From: a bacterium
GTDB lineage: Bacteria > Patescibacteriota > Minisyncoccia > UBA6257 > MFKM01
Assembly: GCA_030693325.1 (NCBI GenBank)
Contig: JAUYAV010000011.1
Location: 1,368-65,367, forward strand
Length of the DNA stretch: 64,000 bases
Direction: 5' to 3'
Part shown: in pieces, positions 5,106 through 59,253 of the stretch
Position numbering within the stretch: the first letter of the stretch is position 1
Layout: each line of letters starts with the position of its first letter
Program-made: the position numbers and the translations under genes
Notes under the pieces: generated by a model
Told to the model about the DNA's origin: nothing
The model's database searches: none
Seen by the model: the letters and a program-made list of their open reading frames with translations, nothing else

Positions 5106-5424
5106 TGAGTTCATAAACATAATTACGGTAATTGCCGTAATTACAGTAATTACTGTAATTTTTATGAATTGAACGGTTTGAATCCGAGGATTATGACATC
5201 AATCACGGCGGTTATAGAAAGTAATTTCTATATTCCAATAGTTTAATTAATTTAGCTAACTAATATCGGTGGAACCCTAATTGATGATTAGGGCAATACC
5301 GAGGGAATTCTTTATAAATTAAAGAAGCCCGTAGAGACTAAGCGTTAGCCTCCGCCAAAATTTTGTAAAAAAATGGGCGGATGAAGATATAGTCCAATAC
5401 ACTTAGTAATAAGTGACCAATATG
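5106..5424 (+). mobile_element. ORF-less group I intron in 23S rRNA at the I-CreI/I-CeuI-type site (exon CCGU|CGUGAGACAGG, about E. coli 2593-2596)
   Basis: exon homology breaks after gggttcaaaccgt and resumes at cgtgagacaggttggtctctatc; the 3' part has the group I P7/P3 signature ggcggatgaagatatagtcc; intron ends in G and the upstream exon in U. Confidence 0.7.
5121..5160. repeat. tandem array of the 8-bp palindrome GTAATTAC (9-bp period) inside the P1/P2 region of intron 1, embedded in a larger hairpin at 5097..5180
   Basis: aattacggtaattgccgtaattacagtaattactgtaatt; same array at 7511..7550 and 17545..17584. Confidence 0.8.
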
Positions 5425-6738: not shown

Positions 6739-7521
6739 ATGACCCCTCGCTTGGTTAAACAACTGCTTTACGGCGCTTTCTATTTTTTAATAATATTTAT
6801 TATTTTTTGGCTGATTTATATTTTATTTTTGAAACCCGCGCCCACTTGTTCCGATGGACATCGGAATCAAAACGAAATCGGCATTGATTGTGGCGGATTT
6901 TGTCCGTCCTGTGAATTAACCCAATTGAAAAATTTGGCGGGTGATTGGGCTTTAGTTTTGCCGGCTGGAGAAAACGGGATAACGCTGTTGGCTGAGATTA
7001 CTAATCCCAATTTGAATTTCGGGGCTGAAAGTTTTTCTTACCAATTCAAAATCATCGGCCCTTTCGGCTTACTGAAAACCGTTGGAGGTCAGTCATCTAT
7101 TTACAGCGGCGAAATAAAATATTTAATAGCAACCGCCGTTCCGGTTAATCCTCAAGACGCAAAACGGGTGGAACTGGAAATATCTGCCTCCAGTACTGTT
7201 TGGCAATCGCAGGAAAAAATGCCCAAACCTGATTTAGCGAATCCCTCTCATCAAACAGTAATTTCAAACGGAAGCGTAATAGTGAAAGGTATTATTAGAA
7301 ATAAAAGTCCTCTTTTAATATCTCAAACAAAAATCATAGCCCTTATTTATAATTTTGATGGAAGCCAAATCCTAAACGCGTCTTACACAACCTTAGCTGG
7401 CCTCAAAGGGGATGAACAGCGGGCCTTTTCCATTGGATTCCCGAAAGGCGATTGGACCAAAAAAATAGATACAAACAGAACCAAGATTTTTATTGAACCC
7501 CAAATTACCAAATTACAGTAA
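6739..7521 (+). CDS. hypothetical membrane-anchored protein with a Cys-rich segment
   Basis: 260 aa ORF; N-terminal TM FYFLIIFIIFWLIYILFL; CSDG...CGGFCPSC. Confidence 0.5.
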   Translation: MTPRLVKQLLYGAFYFLIIFIIFWLIYILFLKPAPTCSDGHRNQNEIGIDCGGFCPSCELTQLKNLAGDWALVLPAGENGITLLAEITNPNLNFGAESFSYQFKIIGPFGLLKTVGGQSSIYSGEIKYLIATAVPVNPQDAKRVELEISASSTVWQSQEKMPKPDLANPSHQTVISNGSVIVKGIIRNKSPLLISQTKIIALIYNFDGSQILNASYTTLAGLKGDEQRAFSIGFPKGDWTKKIDTNRTKIFIEPQITKLQ

Positions 7522-7550
7522 TTACAGTAATTGCCGTAATTACGGTAATT
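7511..7550. repeat. GTAATTAC tandem palindrome array overlapping the TAA stop of the upstream gene
   Basis: aattacagtaattacagtaattgccgtaattacggtaatt. Confidence 0.8.
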
Positions 7551-7558
7551 AAATTTTT

Positions 7559-8623
7559 ATGTTTAAGAAACTTGATTGGTGGCTTATCGGCGCTTTGATT
7601 TTTATGGCCGCGGCCAGTTTAATATCGCTTTCGTCTACCAAACCGGCGCTTTTTCAAATCCAACTTATTTGGTACGCATTGAGCTTTTTGATTATTTTTT
7701 TTGCGGCAAAAATTAACTGGCGTTGGCTTATAACCCAAAATTGGTTTTTGCTGTCTTTCTATTGGCTGACGATCATTTTATTGATTGCCGCCTTTTTTTT
7801 CAGGCCTATCCGAGGCGCCCAAAGCTGGTTGATAATCGGAAATTTCCAGTTTCAGCCATCGGAATTGGCAAAAATTTCCCTGATTCTTATTTTCGCCAGT
7901 TTTTTCTCGCGCCGTTATCTTGAAGTTTCATTGATTAAAAACATAGCCGCTTCATTTTTTTATTTTTTTATTCCGGCGGCGCTGGTAGCGCTTCAACCGG
8001 CTTTGGGTATGGCTATAATTTTTTTCGGTATTTGGTTCAGTTTTTTGATAGTAAGCGGCTTGAAATGGCAGAGGATTTTCGCCAGTTTTTTAATTTTTAT
8101 TTTGGTATTTTCTTTTCTTTGGATGACTTTTCTGAGGCCCTACCAGAAAGAAAGGGTTTTGGGATTTATCTTTCCGGACCGGAATCCTTTGGGAACGAAT
8201 TATAATGTCATTCAGTCAAAAATCGCCATCGGTTCGGCGGGATTATTCGGAAAAGGCTTCCAGCAGGGGACGCAAAGCCGGCTGGGTTTTCTGCCTGAAG
8301 CCCAAACCGATTTTATTTTTTCCGCTTTCGTGGAAGAATGGGGATTGGTCGGCGGCCTTCTTTTGATTGCCGCTTTTTTGCTGATTATTTTCAGAATAAT
8401 TAAAATTGGCATCAAATCGGAAGGCAACTGCGCCAAATTTATTTGTTTGGGCGCCGCTATCGCCCTCGGTTCGCAATTTTTCTTTAATATCGGTTCTTGT
8501 CTGGGGCTTTCACCGGTGGTGGGGATAACTTTTCCTTTTTTCAGTTACGGAGGATCTAGCTTATTGACTAACGCTTTGCTCATCGGTATAATACAAAATA
8601 TTGCAATTGAATCCTCGTTTTAA
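7559..8623 (+). CDS. SEDS-family peptidoglycan glycosyltransferase (RodA/FtsW)
   Basis: 10-TM ORF with SEDS motifs QPSELAKISLIL, LPEAQTDFIFS, FSYGGSS. Confidence 0.85.
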   Translation: MFKKLDWWLIGALIFMAAASLISLSSTKPALFQIQLIWYALSFLIIFFAAKINWRWLITQNWFLLSFYWLTIILLIAAFFFRPIRGAQSWLIIGNFQFQPSELAKISLILIFASFFSRRYLEVSLIKNIAASFFYFFIPAALVALQPALGMAIIFFGIWFSFLIVSGLKWQRIFASFLIFILVFSFLWMTFLRPYQKERVLGFIFPDRNPLGTNYNVIQSKIAIGSAGLFGKGFQQGTQSRLGFLPEAQTDFIFSAFVEEWGLVGGLLLIAAFLLIIFRIIKIGIKSEGNCAKFICLGAAIALGSQFFFNIGSCLGLSPVVGITFPFFSYGGSSLLTNALLIGIIQNIAIESSF

Positions 8624-17339: not shown

Positions 17340-17546
17340 ATGAATAAGAAACAGTGTTTTTTTTGTTCCCAAAATTTAAAAGACGTTGATTATAAAGAGA
17401 TTGAATTACTCCGGCGTTTTGTGTCCGGCCAAAGCAAAATCATTGACCCGCGATATTCCGGCATCTGCGCCAAACACCAGAGAAAACTGGCGCAAGCGAT
17501 AAAAAGAGCCCGGTATTTAGGATTATTGCCGTTTGTTTCAAGATAA
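17340..17546 (+). CDS. rpsR: 30S ribosomal protein S18
   Basis: CFFC...DYKEIELLRRFVSGQSKI...RKLAQAIKRARYLGLLPF. Confidence 0.9.
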   Translation: MNKKQCFFCSQNLKDVDYKEIELLRRFVSGQSKIIDPRYSGICAKHQRKLAQAIKRARYLGLLPFVSR

Positions 17547-17584
17547 TTACAGTAATTACTGTAATTACCGTAATTACGGTAATT
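17545..17584. repeat. GTAATTAC tandem palindrome array overlapping the rpsR TAA stop
   Basis: aattacagtaattactgtaattaccgtaattacggtaatt. Confidence 0.8.
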
Positions 17585-17593
17585 GAATAAAAA

Positions 17594-18124
17594 ATGTCTT
17601 TCGATTTTTATATTTTTCAAGCTTTCCATAATTTAGCCAATAAGTCTAATTTTTTTGATGGGCTGATTGTTTTTTTGGCCGGCTACCTCCAGTATGTTTT
17701 ATTAGCTTTGGCGATTTTTCTGTTGCTTGCGAAAATAAAAGATTGGCGCCATCAGCTTTATATCGTTTCGGTTTTTCTACTTTCGGCTATTATCAGCCGG
17801 GGATTGATTACGGAAATTATCCGATTTTTCTATCACCGATTAAGGCCATTTTTGGCTCTCAATCTTACGCCCCTAGTCAAAGATTTCAGCGGCTCTTTCC
17901 CTTCCGGCCATATGACTTTGTATTTCGCTCTGGCTTTAACTATTTTTTTGATAAGCCGAAAATGGACCTGGTTTTTTGTCGCCAGCGTTATTTTGATGGG
18001 CCTGGCAAGAATCGCCGCCGGCGTTCACTGGCCTTCGGATATTATAGGCGGAATTCTAATTGCTATTATCAGTTATTTTATTGTCAAAAAAATTCTTCCC
18101 TCAAACAATAAAACCGCCAATTAA
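17594..18124 (+). CDS. PAP2-family membrane phosphatase (undecaprenyl-diphosphatase or PgpB-like)
   Basis: PAP2 motifs RLRP, PSGH, ARIAAGVHWPSD. Confidence 0.8.
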   Translation: MSFDFYIFQAFHNLANKSNFFDGLIVFLAGYLQYVLLALAIFLLLAKIKDWRHQLYIVSVFLLSAIISRGLITEIIRFFYHRLRPFLALNLTPLVKDFSGSFPSGHMTLYFALALTIFLISRKWTWFFVASVILMGLARIAAGVHWPSDIIGGILIAIISYFIVKKILPSNNKTAN

Positions 18125-18226: not shown

Positions 18227-18278
18227 TCCTTTTTAATTATAACGCATAAATTTTAACAGCCAACTCGCGAAATTCATA

Positions 18279-18423
18279 GCCAAACCAAACTTGTCTGAGA
18301 AAATATCCCGCAGGCACTGAAAGATTGGTTTCGCCGTAGGCGAATTTCAGCGCCGAGGGAAAAGAAAATTTTGCCGCTGGAGCAAAATTATTCTGGTTTT
18401 CGAAGGCAAGTTTGGTTTGGCTA
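18279..18423 (+). repeat. copy A of a ~145-bp structured repeat family (16-bp terminal inverted repeat AGCCAAACCAAACTTG, conserved cores, variable internal hairpin)
   Basis: direct comparison with copies at 20663..20801, 43333..43476 and 57606..57748. Confidence 0.85.
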
Positions 18424-20400: not shown

Positions 20401-20630
20401 ATTTTTCACAAAACCTTTTCCGCCAGCAAATTTCCGTTCAGATAAATTATCTTCGCTCGTCCTCAGAAGGTAACGAAAAATATCGAACTCACCCAATCTT
20501 ACGAGGTTTAACCTCATAAGATTGGGATTCAGACAGCGAATATTTTTCTACTTCTTTCGTCCTCGCTCAGTAATTTATAACTTCACTTCAACAGGCTGGC
20601 TAAAAAAAGGTTTTGTGAAAAAAATCTTCC
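20401..20630. repeat. 230-bp imperfect long palindrome bounded by inverted repeats gatttttcacaaaacctttt / aaaaggttttgtgaaaaaaatc, centred on cgaggtttaacctca
   Basis: arms read on both strands; the central motif recurs at 22225 and 41424. Confidence 0.7.
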
Positions 20631-20662
20631 TTACAAAACTTTCCTGAAAAGAAATTCAGGAG

Positions 20663-20801
20663 CAAACCAAACTTGTCTGAGAAAATATCCCGCAACCCCG
20701 ACGGGCTGGGTCTCGCCGAAGGCGAGCCGTCGGGGCGAGGGCAAAGAAAATTTTGCCGCTGGAGCAAAATTATTCTGGTTTTCGAAGGCAAGTTTGGTTT
20801 G
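20663..20801 (+). repeat. copy C of the 145-bp structured repeat family
   Basis: same termini and cores as copy A; different but still base-paired internal hairpin (ccccgacgg...ccgtcgggg). Confidence 0.85.
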
Positions 20802-20834
20802 TTTATTATTTTTTCCTCAACAACCTTAGATTAA

Positions 20835-21822: not shown

Positions 21823-21862
21823 GTTCCCTCACTGATATACTTAAGTATATCAGTGAGGGAAC
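21823..21862. repeat. 40-bp perfect palindrome gttccctcactgatatacttaagtatatcagtgagggaac (core GATATACTTAAGTATATC)
   Basis: same core with different, still complementary flanks at 26281 and 26455. Confidence 0.85.
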
Positions 21863-22224
21863 TTATTACCCGGTGGCGGCGGTGAAAGTGCGGAGAGACT
21901 AAAGGAAGGGGAAATAACCATAGAAGACAAGAAATTCTATGAGGGATTTTTTGAGGAAATCGGGGAAGAACTAAGGAAATCAAAGGGAATGGGAGAGGGG
22001 AACAAAAAGCAGGATTAAATTATAGGCGGTAGGCTGTCCGCGCTAAAAGGCTTTGAGGGCAGATTCGTGGATGAGACGGCGATGAGTTTTGGGCTACCTA
22101 TAGATTCTAATTTCTCTTACTTGATATAGCCGCGAGCAAAGATTAAAATGGGCGGATAAAATCCCCAAAACTTTGCTTTAATATCGGAGGGATAATACTG
22201 TAAGAATTAATCTAGTATGAAGTA

Positions 22225-26280: not shown

Positions 26281-26318
26281 ATCTTATACTGATATACTTA
26301 AGTATATCAGTATAAGAT
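26281..26318. repeat. 38-bp perfect palindrome atcttatactgatatacttaagtatatcagtataagat (GATATACTTAAGTATATC family)
   Basis: read directly. Confidence 0.85.
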
Positions 26319-26454
26319 TATCCTCTTGATTAGAATATCGGATTTAAAGCATTAGATTAGAGTATTAGTATCGGAACAAACCCGATATTTCCTATATTTT
26401 TATTTCCTATATTTACAATATTTTCATTTATTTCCATTTTACATTTCTTCCAAC

Positions 26455-26478
26455 AGCGATATACTTAAGTATATCGCT
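26455..26478. repeat. 24-bp palindrome agcgatatacttaagtatatcgct (same core family)
   Basis: read directly. Confidence 0.8.
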
Positions 26479-26626
26479 CCGGCAACATAGACTAAGCCCA
26501 ATGTACCCGTCGCAAAGGTTTATTTTATCTCCGATGTCTATCGGGGGACCCTGCCCGCCTTCGCGGTGCCGTAGCCCCGCTTCGGTGGGCGGAAGCCCGT
26601 ACCCGTCACATAGTTATCCCCATTTA

Positions 26627-31464: not shown

Positions 31465-32585
31465 AGATAGCTTTAGCGCATGATTATTTAAACCAGTGCG
31501 GTGGAGCGGAAAACGTTCTGAAAGTTTTAGCCGAAATTTTTCCCGAAGCGCCCATTTATACTCTTTTCTACGACGAAAATAAAACCCGGAGTTATTTTAA
31601 AAACCGCGTCAAAAAAACCAGTTTCCTTGATTTTGGAATCGTCAGGAATCATCATCGGGCTTTTATCCCTTTACTGCCGTTGGCCAGCAGCAATTTAAAG
31701 ATTGAACCTGAATATGATTTGGTTATATCTTCCAGCGCCGGCTATGCCAAAGGTTTTAATTCCAAAAACGCCTTCCATATTTGTTATTGCCATACTCCGC
31801 TCCGCTATGCCTGGGAGGAAAATTATCTTCAAGGATTGGATTTATTCCATATACCCTTATTAAAAACTTTGGCTAAACCAGTACGCGCCGCTTTAAGAAG
31901 CTGGGATAAAAAAGCCAGCCGCCGAGTGGATGTATTTATCGCCAATTCTTATTTTATCGCCCAAAAAATCAAGAATTTCTATAATCGGGAAGCCGAAGTA
32001 ATCTATCCGCCGATTGATTTGAAAAAATTCTATCCCGAACCCTCTCAAAAAACCGGTGATTATTTTTTGATGGTAGGCCGACTGCTTCATTACAAACGTT
32101 TTGACCTCGGCATTGAGGCCTTTAATCAACTAGGGCTTCCTTTAAAAATAGTCGGTGAAGGTCCGGAACTTCAAAAATTAAAATCAATGGTTAAATCTCC
32201 TTTGATAGAATTTTGCTCTTATATTGAGAACCTGGACGAGCTCCGGAAAATTTATAGCGGAGCTAAAGCTTTAATATTCCCCCAGATTGAGGACTTTGGG
32301 ATGGTGGCGGCCGAAGCCCAAGCCTGCGGCTTGCCGGTAATAGGCTATAACACCGGAGGAGTTAAAGAGATTATTAAAGAAGGGAGAACCGGCTTATTAT
32401 TTAACGAGCAAACGCCGGAAGCCTTGATAAAGGCAGTTTATTTATTTGAAAAAACTGATTTTTCCAAATCGGAAATCATTGAAAATGCCCAACGATTTTC
32501 CAAAGAAAATTTTAAATCAAAATTTCAAGAAATAATCAATAAAATAAAAAATGAAGAAAACAAAATAAATCATTTACTATTGTAA
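31461..32585 (+). CDS. glycosyltransferase family 4
   Basis: GT-B C-terminal EDFGMVAAEAQACGLPVIG...GGVKE. Confidence 0.8.
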   Translation: MKIALAHDYLNQCGGAENVLKVLAEIFPEAPIYTLFYDENKTRSYFKNRVKKTSFLDFGIVRNHHRAFIPLLPLASSNLKIEPEYDLVISSSAGYAKGFNSKNAFHICYCHTPLRYAWEENYLQGLDLFHIPLLKTLAKPVRAALRSWDKKASRRVDVFIANSYFIAQKIKNFYNREAEVIYPPIDLKKFYPEPSQKTGDYFLMVGRLLHYKRFDLGIEAFNQLGLPLKIVGEGPELQKLKSMVKSPLIEFCSYIENLDELRKIYSGAKALIFPQIEDFGMVAAEAQACGLPVIGYNTGGVKEIIKEGRTGLLFNEQTPEALIKAVYLFEKTDFSKSEIIENAQRFSKENFKSKFQEIINKIKNEENKINHLLL

Positions 32586-32614
32586 TTCCGCGATCGTGGA
32601 ATTACAATAGTAAA
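32573..32614. repeat. 42-bp near-perfect palindrome tttactattgtaattccgcgatcgtggaattacaatagtaaa overlapping the GT4 stop codon
   Basis: second copy (perfect) at 59191..59232. Confidence 0.85.
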
Positions 32615-32642
32615 TTTATAATGACTAAAGAAAACAAAAAAT

Positions 32643-41564: not shown

Positions 41565-41760
41565 TAAATATGAGACCTAACCCGTAGGGGCAACCTACGG
41601 CAGGGTTATAAAAACCAGTAACGGATAAAAAGCTCCTAGTCAGAGCTCCGTTACTGGTCATATGGGGAAACCCGTATGGGGGTCGCAAGACCTCGCTGGC
41701 TGGGAGCTTTGTGTTTTCATAAAGCTAAAATGTCGAACCCAGCTAGCGTTAGTTTCTTTA
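41565..41760 (+). ncRNA. GC-rich structured leader or candidate cis-regulatory RNA upstream of a secreted-protein gene
   Basis: stack of hairpins in AT-rich surroundings: cgtagg-GGCAA-cctacg (GNRA loop), accagtaacgga...tccgttactggt, ggtc-GCAA-gacc, repeated cccgtaNgggg; identity unknown. Confidence 0.3.
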
Positions 41761-41768
41761 ATAACTTT

Positions 41769-42935
41769 ATGAAAAATAAAATAATTTCTCTATTTCTAAT
41801 ATTTAGCTGTCTTTCGTTTTACTTAGTTTGGCCGGCTAATGCCTTAGCTGGTGTTTCTGATTTTACGGGCTGTCCAGCTTACAACGGCGGTTTGCAAGGA
41901 AGTGATGATTGTTATAAAGGATTGCGGGGCGATGGAGGTTCTTGTGAGTATGGAGTAGGAAGTATAAGGGGCACTGCAAATTTTTCCACGGCCGAACCAA
42001 AACTTCCCTTTCCGGAAGGAACAATTCTAAGGTGTAAAGGCATTTCTCGTACAGGTGGTTGGTCTCGTCATCGGATATACATGGATAGAATCTATCCCTA
42101 TACTAAAAGCAGAATTGCCGGTTTATCCGAAAATGGCTATGAGGTTATTTTAGAGAAAGGCGAAATGAAAAGAAAAAGTTTAGGATTTTATCCGGCAGCA
42201 GATGGAAGATATACGCATTGTACCCAATATACGGGCGGAGAATGCACGGGCGAAATAGTTTATTTAGATGAATATGAAAAAACTCTTTCTTCTGAAGATA
42301 TACCTTATCTGACAAAAGATTGTAATATTTGGGGTAGACTGGGAAAGTGTGTATATTGGGCTTCGGAAAAGAAAAATTTTGAGAATCTTATTACTAAAGA
42401 CGTAATGGAGGTGGTAGACAAAACCGAACGAACTTTTAGTTGGACCGATGAAGACGAAGATTGGTTTTCAACCACGGTCACTTCTCATGTTGACTATAAG
42501 GCCTATCTTTTAACCGCTTACGGTTCTATTTTTAGGTATCACAAATACCAAGAAGAAAGCAAAACTTCCTGGGGAGGATGGGGTTTTGCTATCATAGGAG
42601 CTGTTTTTGGAGCGTTTCTTACTCCTTTTCTTCCGGTTTTGGGAATTTTTGGCTCTTTTTTGGCTTCAGCAATGCCAGTGATAAGCGGCAGTATTTTTGC
42701 CAACCTGACAATGCTTGGGGGATATTTGACTTCGCAGGCCTTGGGGAAAACGACCAATCTTGACGGGGGAGAGCTTACTCTTGTTTATGTGCCGGATTAT
42801 TCTTATTCAACTTCAACAGACTCAACATTGACAATGCCGCCAATAGCGACCTCAACAATAGAGGGGTTTCAAACTCCGGCAGTACAACCGGCCCAGCCAA
42901 CGCCCGATTTCAAAATAAAAGAAATTAAACCGTAA
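41769..42935 (+). CDS. hypothetical secreted Cys-rich protein with C-terminal TM segments and Ser/Thr-rich tail
   Basis: signal peptide MKNKIISLFLIFSCLSFYLVWPANALA; the ORF track's earlier start at 41676 lies in the structured leader. Confidence 0.5.
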   Translation: MKNKIISLFLIFSCLSFYLVWPANALAGVSDFTGCPAYNGGLQGSDDCYKGLRGDGGSCEYGVGSIRGTANFSTAEPKLPFPEGTILRCKGISRTGGWSRHRIYMDRIYPYTKSRIAGLSENGYEVILEKGEMKRKSLGFYPAADGRYTHCTQYTGGECTGEIVYLDEYEKTLSSEDIPYLTKDCNIWGRLGKCVYWASEKKNFENLITKDVMEVVDKTERTFSWTDEDEDWFSTTVTSHVDYKAYLLTAYGSIFRYHKYQEESKTSWGGWGFAIIGAVFGAFLTPFLPVLGIFGSFLASAMPVISGSIFANLTMLGGYLTSQALGKTTNLDGGELTLVYVPDYSYSTSTDSTLTMPPIATSTIEGFQTPAVQPAQPTPDFKIKEIKP

Positions 42936-43332: not shown

Positions 43333-43476
43333 GGACTTACGCCGTTGCCTTGAAGAATATCCCGCAGGCGCTGAAAGCTTGGTTTCGCCGCAGGCGAATT
43401 TCAGTGCCGAGGGAAAAGAAATCCCGACCGCTGGAGTCGGAATATTCTGGTTCTGAAAGGCAATGGCGGAAGTCCT
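43333..43476 (+). repeat. copy D (divergent) of the 145-bp structured repeat family: different terminal stem (aggacttacgccgttgcc / ggcaatggcggaagtcct) but same internal cores
   Basis: conserved atatcccgcagg, gccgagggaaaagaaa, cgctgga loop and attctggtt; stems replaced by compensatory sequences. Confidence 0.75.
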
Positions 43477-56293: not shown

Positions 56294-57757
56294 TTATAAA
56301 TAGTCAAGAGGATTCAAAGTCGCTCCATAGGGCTGGAGGCCGCAAGTGTTGCTGTTTTTTATTTCGGGTGAAAGCAAGGTCTGGCCTCCGCCGTAGATAT
56401 TCGCATAAACCGTAAAATGGAGATGCGAGCCGGTAGAAAAACCTGTATTACCACTATAACCAATCCGGACTCCCCTATTTACGATATCGCCGACTTTCAC
56501 CTCTTGCAAAGAAAGATGAGTATATAATGTTGAAAGATTATTGTCGTGTTTAATCACGATATATTTTCCATAAGAACCGCCGTATTTCTTTTTACCATAC
56601 CAAACCGGAGGACAATATTTATCGGTATTCCCGACAGCTATCACCCGGCCGTTTTCGGCCGCGAAAACCTCCGTCGAGACAGGTACGCCGATATCAATTC
56701 CGTTATGAAATCCGCCATTGCCCGTGCCTTCATTGCAGGCCGGATAAGATTTTCTGGCAAAAGAATCGACAATACAGCCGTATCCCTGGGTTAAATTCGC
56801 TTTCAAATCTAAATTCAAGGGCATGGCTAAAACTCCAGACCGCGGTACAGGCAGGATATTCGGATCAATTTTTGCTCTTAATTCGGATTCAATTTTGTCA
56901 ATTTCGGCGCCGACTGCCTGTTGTATTTTTTCCAGCTCATCAATTCTTTGCTGATAGGCGCTTCCTTGTTTTTTATTGACGGCCAAAAGATTTTGTTGCT
57001 CTGCTTTTTGATCTTGAACTATAAGTTTTCTATTCTGCGAATCGGCTTTTGCCGCTTCCTGATTTTGCTCTTTCTGCGAAACATCGCCTAATTTCTGGAA
57101 ACGTTCGTCGTGGAGCTGCCGAAGCGTGGCTACTTCCGTGGCTAAATTAGTATTAAGGTCAAGCAAGTTTTGAGTTTCGGAAATAGTGTCAGTCAAGCTT
57201 TTATTTTTCAACAAAATATTTAAAATCCCTTCGCCTTCTTTTTCATTAAGCTCTCTTAATAAATTAATGATGGCCTGTTTCTCAATATCGGACTTATTTC
57301 CTATATCTTTGATTTCACTATTCAAAGATTCAATTTCCAAGCCAAGTTTTTCAATAGTGATTCCGCTGGATTTAATTGACAAATTTAACTGGCTGATTTG
57401 ATAATCGTTCTTTTTAATATCTTTTTGAATAGTGGCGCTTTCTTTGTTTAATTCGTTGAGATTATCAAGAATTTTTTGGCGCTCGGAATCAATCTGTTGA
57501 AGCTCGGCGCTTTTCTGGTTGATAGCATCTCTGAGATCTTGAGGAGTGGAAGCCTGAACGGTAGAAAATAGAAAATAGAAAATAGAAAATAGAAAGATAA
57601 AAACAATCCAACCAAACTTGTTTGAGAAAATATCCCGCAGGCGTCCAAAGATTGGTCTCCGCGAAGCGGAGTTTGGACGCCGAGGGAAAAGAAAATTTTG
57701 CCGCTGGAGCAAAATTATTCTGGTTTTTGAAAACAAGTTTGGTTGGATGCTATTCAT
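56294..57757 (-). CDS. M23/LytM-family peptidoglycan metalloendopeptidase with long coiled-coil (EnvC-like); the N-terminal 48 codons are read through a copy of the 145-bp repeat
   Basis: coiled coil; M23 motifs HNGIDIG and GNTGFSTGSHLHF; ATG overlaps the gltX stop (ATGAATAG). Confidence 0.8.
   Translation of the reverse strand: MNSIQPNLFSKTRIILLQRQNFLFPRRPNSASRRPIFGRLRDIFSNKFGWIVFIFLFSIFYFLFSTVQASTPQDLRDAINQKSAELQQIDSERQKILDNLNELNKESATIQKDIKKNDYQISQLNLSIKSSGITIEKLGLEIESLNSEIKDIGNKSDIEKQAIINLLRELNEKEGEGILNILLKNKSLTDTISETQNLLDLNTNLATEVATLRQLHDERFQKLGDVSQKEQNQEAAKADSQNRKLIVQDQKAEQQNLLAVNKKQGSAYQQRIDELEKIQQAVGAEIDKIESELRAKIDPNILPVPRSGVLAMPLNLDLKANLTQGYGCIVDSFARKSYPACNEGTGNGGFHNGIDIGVPVSTEVFAAENGRVIAVGNTDKYCPPVWYGKKKYGGSYGKYIVIKHDNNLSTLYTHLSLQEVKVGDIVNRGVRIGYSGNTGFSTGSHLHFTVYANIYGGGQTLLSPEIKNSNTCGLQPYGATLNPLDYL
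57563..57596. repeat. heptanucleotide tandem repeat (AGAAAAT)x4.5 inside the peptidase N-terminal TM-coding region
   Basis: tagaaaatagaaaatagaaaatagaaaatagaaag. Confidence 0.8.
57606..57748 (+). repeat. copy E of the 145-bp structured repeat family (termini atccaaccaaacttgtt / aacaagtttggttggat)
   Basis: internal hairpin ggcgtccaaa..ctccgcgaagcggag..tttggacgcc is fully compensatory relative to copy A. Confidence 0.85.
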
Positions 57758-59144
57758 TAAACTTTTGAATGGCTATTTTTATTCTTTTCAAACTTTCGTC
57801 ACGACCCAAAACTCCCAAAATTTCAAAAGGTCCCGGCGAGGCGGTCTGGCCGGAAAGGGCCACTCTCAAAGGCCAAAAAACCTCGCCCCGGCCCCGACTT
57901 TCGGCCAAAGCCATAATTTTATTATTAGCATTGTCAAAATCTTCCACTAAAGGCAAAATTGATTGAAGATTATCAAGAATCTTTTCCTTTGGCGTTTTAT
58001 CCCAAATCAAAAGATTAGCCGGATAATCGGGCAATTCAAAAAAGAAACCGACCAATTTTACGAAATCAGTCAATTTTTTGACTCTTTCCTTTTCAATCTT
58101 AACAACTTTTATCAAAAATTCCTCGTCCTTCAGCCATTCGTGAGGAATAAAATTTTTCAGACGCTCAATTAACTCTTCCGGTTCCAATTGCATAATATAT
58201 TGGCTATTGAGCCAATCCAATTTTTCCAAATTGAAAACCGCTCCTCCTTTCTGAATGCGTTTTAAGTTGAATTGTTTTATTAATTCTTCCAAAGCGAATA
58301 CTTCCCTGTCGTCTTCCTCCGGGTGCCAACCCAGCAAAGCCAAAAAATTCATCATAGCCTCCGGCAAATAACCTTCATTTCGGTAATCTGCAATTGAGGT
58401 TTCAATATAACGCTTGGAGAGTTTGCTTCGGTCAGCTGACAGAATTAAGGGCAAATGGGCATAAACCGGTTCGTCAAAACCCAGGGCTCCTTGGATCATA
58501 ATTTGTTTCGGTGTATTGGAAATATGATCTTCGCCGCGGATAATATGGCTGATTTTCATTTCAAAATCATCAACCACCACTGCTAGATTATAAAGCGGCG
58601 TCCGCAAATTTTTGGCGATAACAATATCTCCGATAAGCCCGGTGTTAAATTTTACTTTACCTCGGATTAAATCGTTGAAAACCACTTCCGTTTCCGGCAT
58701 TTTAAAACGGATGACCGAGGGTCTTTCAGAATCCGGTTCGCGATTATTCCGGCAACGGCCGCTGTATTTCGGCGCTAAACCCTGGGAAAGCATCGCCTGT
58801 TTATCGGCTTCAATTTCTTCTTTGGTACAAAAACAATAATAAGCCCGGCCTTCTTCAAGAAGTTTTTTGATATATTTTTCATAAATATCCAATCTATCGG
58901 TTTGCCGGAAAGGACCTTCGTCCCAATTCAATCCCAGCCATTGAAGGCTCTCAATAATATCCTTTTCATACTTTTGGTCGGAACGCTCCAAATCCGTGTC
59001 CTCTATCCGTAAAATAAAGCTCCCGCCCTGATTTTTGGCAAAAAGCCAGTTAAACAGAGCGGTCCGGGCCGTGCCCATGTGCAAAAGACCGGTTGGCGAG
59101 GGCGCAATCCGCACCCGAATGTCTTTTTTGGGACTATCAGCCAT
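57750..59144 (-). CDS. gltX: glutamyl-tRNA synthetase
   Basis: HIGH (APSPTGLLHMGTART), KMSKS-like KLSKR; 464 aa. Confidence 0.9.
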   Translation of the reverse strand: MADSPKKDIRVRIAPSPTGLLHMGTARTALFNWLFAKNQGGSFILRIEDTDLERSDQKYEKDIIESLQWLGLNWDEGPFRQTDRLDIYEKYIKKLLEEGRAYYCFCTKEEIEADKQAMLSQGLAPKYSGRCRNNREPDSERPSVIRFKMPETEVVFNDLIRGKVKFNTGLIGDIVIAKNLRTPLYNLAVVVDDFEMKISHIIRGEDHISNTPKQIMIQGALGFDEPVYAHLPLILSADRSKLSKRYIETSIADYRNEGYLPEAMMNFLALLGWHPEEDDREVFALEELIKQFNLKRIQKGGAVFNLEKLDWLNSQYIMQLEPEELIERLKNFIPHEWLKDEEFLIKVVKIEKERVKKLTDFVKLVGFFFELPDYPANLLIWDKTPKEKILDNLQSILPLVEDFDNANNKIMALAESRGRGEVFWPLRVALSGQTASPGPFEILGVLGRDESLKRIKIAIQKFNE

Positions 59145-59190
59145 AATATTTGATTATAAATCAAAATAAGCTTTTTGGCTATCAAGCAAA

Positions 59191-59232
59191 TTTACTATTG
59201 TAATTCCACGATCGTGGAATTACAATAGTAAA
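59191..59232. repeat. 42-bp perfect palindrome tttactattgtaattccacgatcgtggaattacaatagtaaa between murG and gltX
   Basis: second copy at 32573..32614. Confidence 0.85.
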
Positions 59233-59253
59233 TTCAAAATTCAATTTTTCTAA

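Follow-up and report, generated by a model that had tools for sequence, protein, structure and literature searches.

A structured repeat of Patescibacteria inserted in frame behind the start codon of an M23 peptidase gene

Introduction

A 64,000-nucleotide (nt) stretch of a patescibacterial metagenome assembly (GenBank GCA_030693325.1, contig JAUYAV010000011.1, positions 1,368 to 65,367 of the forward strand; hereafter the window) carries a gene for an M23 (LytM-type) peptidase whose ATG overlaps the stop codon of gltX, the gene for glutamyl-tRNA synthetase, and whose first 50 codons are made up almost entirely of one copy, copy E, of a dispersed repeat. How did a repeat come to lie inside this gene, and from which codon is the protein translated? 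The original prediction, made from the letters of the window, offered two answers: either the repeat was exapted as an N-terminal extension that serves as a type II membrane anchor, or the gene starts at a non-ATG codon further downstream and the repeat is a 5′ untranslated region. Our analysis shows that copy E is an insertion, by a structured repeat family of Patescibacteria (candidate phyla radiation, CPR), behind the ancestral M23 ATG, and indicates that it is most likely translated as a tolerated extension of a signal peptide. The element family itself is a more interesting result than the M23 extension.

Results

Start codon of the M23 gene

The open reading frame (ORF) of the M23 gene starts at the ATG 57757-57755, which lies within the 3′ end of gltX, …AAT GAA TAG (Table 1). 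The overlap of this ATG with the gltX TAG, claimed in the original prediction, was confirmed by reading the sequence, as was the position of the ATG 9 nt outside copy E: the outermost base pair of the copy is 57606/57748, and the gltX stop codon abuts the element. The frame is open through all 143 nt of the copy, and the peptide quoted with the prediction was reproduced. The protein matches Peptidase_M23 (PF01551) with 88 bits and looks catalytically competent, since direct sequence reading finds both the HxxxD (HNGID) and the HxH (HLH) motif. E. coli EnvC, in contrast, is not known to be catalytically competent.

A homology search returned the window protein (P0001), a 487-residue model in NCBI, together with numerous orthologues of 429-452 residues that cover approximately 87-93% of the query. 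The closest four (P0002-P0005) share 72-80% identity, are 435-445 residues long, lack the repeat and begin with MNKF… or MNNRF… at the overlap ATG, and the contigs that encode them (L078, L004, L007 and L079, respectively) have the identical 8-nt overlap of gltX and M23, as ATGAATAA. When the window is aligned with L078, the 30 nt preceding the ATG hardly differ, and divergence sets in immediately after ATGAATA. As these four repeat-free relatives keep the overlap and start there, the comparison indicates that ATG 57757 is the ancestral M23 start, with the repeat inserted in frame about two codons behind it. Alignment of orthologues had been proposed as a check on the original prediction, and the repeat-encoded extension is indeed missing from all of P0002 to P0022.

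Between the repeat and the hydrophobic segment that follows it, the M23 frame contains no ATG, GTG or TTG. If the element were an untranslated leader, as in the second answer of the original prediction, M23 would have to start at ATT, ATC or GTT just before the hydrophobic core. That the element is non-coding in most of its copies, and that its open frame could be due to chance (about 1 in 10), would suit such a leader. We nevertheless consider it very unlikely: such non-canonical starts are very rare, the signal peptide would begin with IVFIF… and lack the positively charged n-region of every orthologue, and the ancestral ATG, at which the relatives start, is kept and in phase.

Both flanks of the insertion, gltX followed by M23, are syntenic neighbours in every relative examined. 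This bears on the concern that the junction is a metagenome assembly artefact, in which contigs were joined through the repeat. Repeats of approximately 145 nt can mislead assemblers, and a single contig supports the junction; given the synteny, however, and the fact that the copies of this genome are 58-81% identical and thus too divergent to collapse in assembly, an artefact is extremely improbable.

A further difference from the orthologues concerns M23 residues ~325-346 (window ~56700-56790), where a segment preceding the HNGIDIG motif is approximately 10 residues longer (CIVDSFARKSYPACNEGTGNGG, compared to ATAFAKGIYVNN in the orthologues).

N-terminal extension and signal peptide

On the minus strand copy E supplies M23 codons 4-51, an arginine-rich sequence, and the frame crosses the entire copy free of stops to reach the hydrophobic stretch IVFIFLFSIFYFLFSTVQA at codon 51. 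The extension contains 10 lysine or arginine residues against 1 aspartate or glutamate. Hydropathy is maximal over residues 49-66, and the orthologue P0010 carries an identical FLFSIFYFLFSTVQA. The N-termini of the orthologues have the n-, h- and c-region layout of short Sec-type signal peptides ending in AxA, e.g. MNKFQFKFAFILALSFSVYFLTSAVQA|S. The window protein has a corresponding VQA|S end, which by the -3/-1 rule points to a cleavable Sec signal peptide and not to the type II anchor proposed originally. At 69 residues, compared to 27 in P0002, this predicted signal peptide has 42 extra codons; either the insertion apparently cost approximately 13-17 ancestral nt, or the hydrophobic cores are of different length. 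The core and the VQA|S end are unchanged, and the extension, which according to the -3/-1 and positive-inside rules would be cytoplasmic, is probably removed together with the signal peptide, leaving the mature enzyme unaltered.

A HMMER search with the 50-residue extension against 1.84 billion representative proteins gave only a 61-residue ORF and a low-complexity giant protein, both as weak matches, and a word-index search of proteins that used the copy at 18279-18421, in the antisense frame most frequently open, gave no candidates.

The DNA encoding the hydrophobic core is itself a tandem repeat of TAGAAAA (Table 1). With a period of 7, each of the three frames encodes the same FYFLFSI-type peptide; slippage would cause a frame shift, and the same core is found in P0010. 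An out-of-frame TTG at 57648 has GGAG before it.

Repeat copies and their reading frames

Four copies of the element in the window score 139-172 bits against the covariance model. The original prediction had counted five; the next match of an unfiltered model search, 2004-2094 with 30 bits, is an unrelated hairpin and was rejected. The copies in this genome share 58-81% identity yet keep 55-57 of 58 model pairs (57 in copy E). The nearest known relative of copy E, with 88% identity, is found in an unrelated genome (L020), which also has the stem variant by which copy E avoids the TGA.

As predicted, the M23 frame is likewise open in the copy at 20661-20803, within the ORF 20600..20791. A check of this frame in all copies, also suggested with the prediction, gave a different picture: it is interrupted by TGA in the copies at 18279-18421 and 43339-43475, i.e. 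in two of the four window copies, and by stops in 19 of 26 family members, leaving it open in 7. The remaining two antisense frames are open in 6 and 14 of the 26. Thus, openness of this frame is no inherent feature of the element. An insertion at this position would leave the M23 ORF intact in roughly 1 of 10 cases (about 1/4 open multiplied by 1/3 in phase), and any other insertion at the start site would have destroyed the gene and been lost.

Approximately 200 nt upstream of copy E, antisense within M23, lies a sigma-70-like site (TTGACA-18-GATAAT, 57376-57405 on the plus strand, 11 of 12 matches) that could drive an antisense transcript through the copy; the count of such sites is within chance expectation.

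Table 1. Positions of the M23 locus features and of the element copies in the window.
Feature	Position	Strand	Remarks
M23 (LytM-type) peptidase gene	56294..57757	-	487 aa; coiled-coil region and PF01551
Hydrophobic core and VQA|S end of the predicted M23 signal peptide, codons 51-69, IVFIFLFSIFYFLFSTVQA	57551..57607	-	ancestral
7-nt tandem repeat TAGAAAA (on +), 4.9 units	57562..57595	.	encodes the hydrophobic core; also present in L001
Element copy E	57606..57748	+	143 nt; outer stem P1, P2 arm, P3 hairpin; 165.9 bits against covariance model R1; antisense to gltX and M23
M23 codons 1-50, MNSIQPNLFSKTRIILLQRQNFLFPRRPNSASRRPIFGRLRDIFSNKFGW	57608..57757	-	basic, hydrophilic; almost entirely element-encoded
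gltX stop/M23 start overlap, 8 nt, ATGAATAG	57750..57757	-	read from the sequence
gltX (glutamyl-tRNA synthetase)	57750..59144	-	stop TAG 57752-57750; PF00749/PF19269 on orthologous genes
Element copy	18279..18421	+	171.9 bits; intergenic, between tRNA-Leu (-) and parA (+)
Element copy	20661..20803	+	161.9 bits; intergenic; 3′ end ~28 nt from the greA (-) stop
Element copy	43339..43475	+	139-145 bits; subtype whose outer stem differs and covaries; intergenic, upstream of a gene for a DEAD-box helicase

Fold and folded strand

From the four window copies alone a three-way junction is obtained, in which 25 of 57 pairs show compensatory changes. Across 28 distinct sequences, 95.3% of the cells are paired and double changes are seen at 45 of 58 pairs. 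None of 500 shuffles reaches the observed values, and sliding the partners by 1-3 columns leaves 37-53% paired; the covariation score is 0.56, compared to 0.15 for the shuffles and at most 0.13 for the slid controls. Because the search pattern fixed parts of the P3 hairpin, invariance there reflects search bias. The ends of the element pair as a 13-19 bp stem, and the sequence of this outer stem differs among subtypes and still pairs. Highly conserved unpaired and junction nucleotides include GAAUAUCCCGCAGG, UUGG, CGAGGGAAAAGAAA, CCGCUGGAG and UAUUCUGGUU. While the covariation support is at the level used for defining Rfam families, Rfam 15 gave no match, neither for the whole window at the gathering threshold nor for 57500-57850 at E up to 10.

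The folded strand is the plus strand of the window, antisense to gltX and M23. This follows from the asymmetry of G-U/U-G over A-C/C-A combinations (75:14 in the genome set and 100:23 in the independent metagenome set) and of A·G over C·U mismatches (37:5 and 46:8, respectively), and from stability, which in 54 of 56 copies favours the model strand, with a mean difference of 9.4 kcal/mol.

Compensatory differences are also found between same-site copies in different genomes. Together with the pairing kept at 58-81% identity, they fit either in-place selection on the fold or repeated re-insertion from diverse active sources.

The flanks of the copies contain no consistent promoter or terminator. 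A semi-conserved motif of approximately 25 nt extends the 5′ flank of only some A-type copies (YTTTYC…AGCC…AAWTTM; e.g. window 18250-18278 and 20635-20660, L001 12896-12925). In L001 and L004 the inserted unit includes this motif, and copy E lacks it.

Distribution and insertion site

We scanned one genome per species, metagenomes and viral contigs with the conserved-core pattern. The genome scan gave 24 loci, 22 of them real and all of these in Patescibacteria (Azambacteria, Saccharibacteria, Berkelbacteria, Jorgensenbacteria, Harrisonbacteria and Paceibacterota); pattern matches in Acidobacteria (L017, L028) were rejected because the covariance model does not match them. The metagenome scan added 45 loci. 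No matches were obtained in the viral contigs or in a phage database search, and a literature search for repeats or RNA motifs of CPR bacteria retrieved no description of this family. The element is 143-150 nt long and lacks a transposase ORF; besides the four copies in the 64 kb window, 3-4 matches were found in single metagenome-assembled genomes (MAGs).

Among 64 non-redundant copies surveyed for position, 50 share at most 40 nt with any called ORF, and 41 of these have an informative 3′ neighbour. This neighbour is the stop codon of an opposite-strand gene in 34 of the 41, at a distance of -10 to 62 nt (median ~11), and the start of a same-strand gene in the other 7, whereas spacing on the 5′ side is looser. 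Copy E, at -2 nt from the gltX stop, obeys this rule. The stop-codon junctions share no conserved target motif or duplication, and no target-site duplication is visible when filled and empty sites, which have diverged, are compared. Behind a 257-aa ORF, L001, L004 and L078 have a copy, and L007 and the window have none; here the unit was inserted after the stop codon and before the terminator. Of the relatives compared, none shares the copy that the window has at gltX/M23. The element is thus mobile, or at least polymorphic. GC skew gave no indication whether its orientation follows replication.

Composite copies were also seen. A B-type copy is nested within an A-type shell in L032 (4758-4908; the same sequence on L039), A-type 5′ sequence directly precedes a B-type copy in L076 (155-303), and the copy at 12653-12871 of L004 has two extra palindromic hairpins of approximately 30 nt in its loops.

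Copies within other genes

Copy E is not the only one within a gene. In the cysteine desulfurase genes of a Saccharibacteria MAG (L025) and of L040, one and the same loop contains an antisense copy that is in frame and free of stops, and residues 92-145 of the L025 protein take the place of 5 residues in the solved enzyme 9wep_A. We inspected 120 CPR cysteine desulfurase homologues, a list that is biased since the query itself carried the element. In 16 of the 120 the element occupies this loop in the frame …FRNQN-F-PAAK-S-PS…, in one (P0140) it lies in sense orientation, and approximately 9 have a divergent subtype; many of the homologues have loops of 21-44 residues, some of which resemble remnants. 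The covariance model confirms the DNA copies in L081 (sense, 113 bits), L082 (95 bits) and L083 (divergent subtype, 91 bits). In a quick tree, presence, absence and type of the element are scattered among sister sequences; the loop is a hot spot at which the element turns over.

A second insertion hot spot in the cysteine desulfurase genes lies at L025 3358-3522, L081 2165-2323 and L083 2148-2304, where residues 225-279 of the L025 protein correspond to 4 residues in 9wep_A; the model matches there are weaker (43 bits in L081, 23 bits in L083).

O-antigen-ligase-like (Wzy_C) genes share one further site, with a sense copy in L027 and an antisense copy in L032, the latter as one element nested in another. 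All gene-internal copies examined at the DNA level are open and in frame, and all loop peptides from the protein search are uninterrupted, which argues for translation of these copies rather than their removal in the manner of an intron or intein. The host genes read the element in different frames, namely all three antisense and at least two sense frames, and no common peptide results. The element-encoded M23 peptide is accordingly an incidental, tolerated by-product and not a selected module, since its frame is closed in most copies, hosts use other frames and orientations, and the peptide does not recur. Of the exapted N-terminal extension put forward in the original prediction, the extension is supported, based on the ancestral ATG in four relatives, and the exaptation is not supported.

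Discussion

Copy E is an insertion of the structured repeat at the usual site of its family, directly after the gltX stop codon and with the folded strand antisense. As the M23 start overlaps the gltX stop, this post-stop position is also a point just after M23 codon 2, and this overlap alone has placed copy E within M23. In the M23 frame the copy is free of stops, and the ATG stays in phase. We therefore propose that translation of M23 most likely still begins at the ancestral ATG, with termination-reinitiation coupling to gltX as the probable mechanism. The ribosome would read on through the element and produce a signal peptide 42 residues longer than that of P0002, with the extension placed ahead of the unchanged core and VQA|S, on the cytoplasmic side, and probably discarded with the signal peptide.

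Several points weigh against this proposal. A strong fold is also obtained for the mRNA-sense strand (-69.4 kcal/mol, z -8.8); its outer stem begins approximately 10 nt after the AUG, and initiation could suffer severely from it. Since ribosomes that terminate at the gltX stop would presumably already have opened the base of this stem, reinitiation coupling, as in the ancestral arrangement, appears the most plausible route to use of the ATG; M23 expression may be reduced. The n-region of 50 residues is unusually long for a Sec signal peptide. An in-phase, stop-free insertion is expected by chance in about one of ten cases, and the open frame is therefore no proof of selection. Finally, the assembly is a single metagenome assembly in which P0001 is one member on one contig.

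In addition, either of two in-frame TTG codons inside the element, codon 8 (at 57736) and codon 16, could be the real start, giving a shorter, partly element-encoded extension. TTG is a valid bacterial start codon; these two, however, are buried in the P1 and P3 stems, neither has a Shine-Dalgarno motif before it on direct sequence reading, and it is the ATG that has the coupling geometry conserved in the orthologues. We regard a TTG start as unlikely.

The strong stem close to the AUG, the long n-region and the occurrence of the allele in one genome only would also be expected if the insertion had crippled M23 by blocking initiation or export, and the gene were a young pseudogene whose ORF has not yet decayed. 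This, too, has little probability. The 487-codon ORF and the catalytic motifs are intact, and copy E, which shares 58-81% identity with the remaining copies of the window and 88% with its nearest known relative, is so divergent that it is probably not a very recent arrival. Moreover, essential-type genes such as cysteine desulfurase tolerate the element in frame in many lineages.

Beyond the M23 locus, the element could be a functional, strand-specific single-stranded module, acting as an antisense RNA or as a folded single-stranded DNA signal, and not merely selfish DNA. We view this as doubtful. If true, CPR bacteria would maintain the element long-term at gene 3′ ends and inside essential genes, e.g. 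cysteine desulfurase, and host proteins would have to put up with any peptide that it happens to encode. In the case of M23, the element would couple gltX and M23 expression or exert antisense control of the M23 start region.

The closest analogue of the element is the Rickettsia palindromic element (RPE). RPEs are repeats of approximately 150 bp found frequently in frame in unrelated genes (Ogata et al. 2000, Science 290:347, summarised in PMC10969869; see also PMC2229807), and each encodes a conserved peptide (PMC10969869). Compared by description, both are hairpin-forming repeats of about 100-150 bp with no transposase, both are dispersed in reduced genomes of host-dependent bacteria, and both recur in frame and free of stops in unrelated genes, adding peptide segments to the products. 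In contrast to RPEs, the present element lacks a single conserved peptide (the M23 frame is open in 7 of 26 copies), forms a three-way junction with conserved unpaired nucleotides and strand-asymmetric covariation, spans phylum-level CPR lineages, and is usually located just after a stop codon in antisense orientation.

With transposable elements of the miniature inverted-repeat type (MITEs) and other small repeats (ERIC, BOX, Correia, QMITE; PMC10969869, PMC2229807) the element shares its small size, pairing inverted-repeat ends, a stable predicted fold, a mostly intergenic location with occasional in-frame intragenic copies, and insertion polymorphism between relatives. No target-site duplication was visible at the diverged filled and empty sites, and no parent insertion sequence was found. 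The element differs from these repeats in that its terminal stem is conserved as structure, not as sequence, and covaries between subtypes; within-genome copies at 58-81% identity that keep 55-57 of 58 pairs are also unlike a recent MITE burst. Integron attC sites resemble it in being structured elements that directly follow the stop of an upstream ORF and fold on the (bottom) strand antisense to it. However, the element lacks conserved RYYYAAC/GTTRRRY cores, which A-type ends miss by one mismatch and of which B-type ends show nothing; its copies are not arranged in cassette arrays, no integrase lies nearby, and the neighbouring genes are housekeeping genes. Unlike the structured-RNA families of Rfam, the element is multi-copy and polymorphic in position. 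Altogether, attC, REP/REPIN, omega-RNA/bridge-RNA, hammerhead and group II intron were set aside on structure or context.

For annotation, the public 487-residue M23 model is probably right about the start codon, and its first 50 residues should be read as repeat-derived, neither a domain nor a type II anchor. More broadly, the locus exposes a family of structured repeats of approximately 145 nt across Patescibacteria, found neither in Rfam nor in the searchable literature and RPE-like in its occurrence within protein genes; Rickettsia and the CPR hosts have in common reduced genomes and a dependence on other cells. Unusual for a repeat are the very strong, strand-asymmetric covariation, the near-fixed post-stop position and the recurrent occupation of the cysteine desulfurase loop. 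Movement without a recognisable transposase, the nature of the single strand (RNA or DNA) and the share of protein length variation in CPR bacteria that is repeat-derived become testable with this family.

Other features of the window

A LOOT RNA (RF03000, 92 bits) at 41574-41694 on the plus strand overlaps the start of the ORF 41676-42935, and a group I intron (RF00028, 78 bits) lies at 5190-5416, at the 3′ end of the 23S rRNA gene. Arrays of a 9-nt unit, AATTAC(A/C/G)GT, partly inverted relative to each other, are found at 5112-5173, 7502-7563 and 17536-17606; the first two flank the 23S rRNA 3′ end, the group I intron and the 5S rRNA, and the third follows rpsR. A near-identical perfect palindrome of 46 nt, ATTTACTATTGTAATTCCRCGATCGTGGAATTACAATAGTAAAT, occurs at 32572-32617 and at 59188-59233, the second between the murG stop and the gltX start. 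Further palindromes, at 21824-21865, 26281-26322 and 26448-26489, have the common core GATATACTTAAGTATATC.

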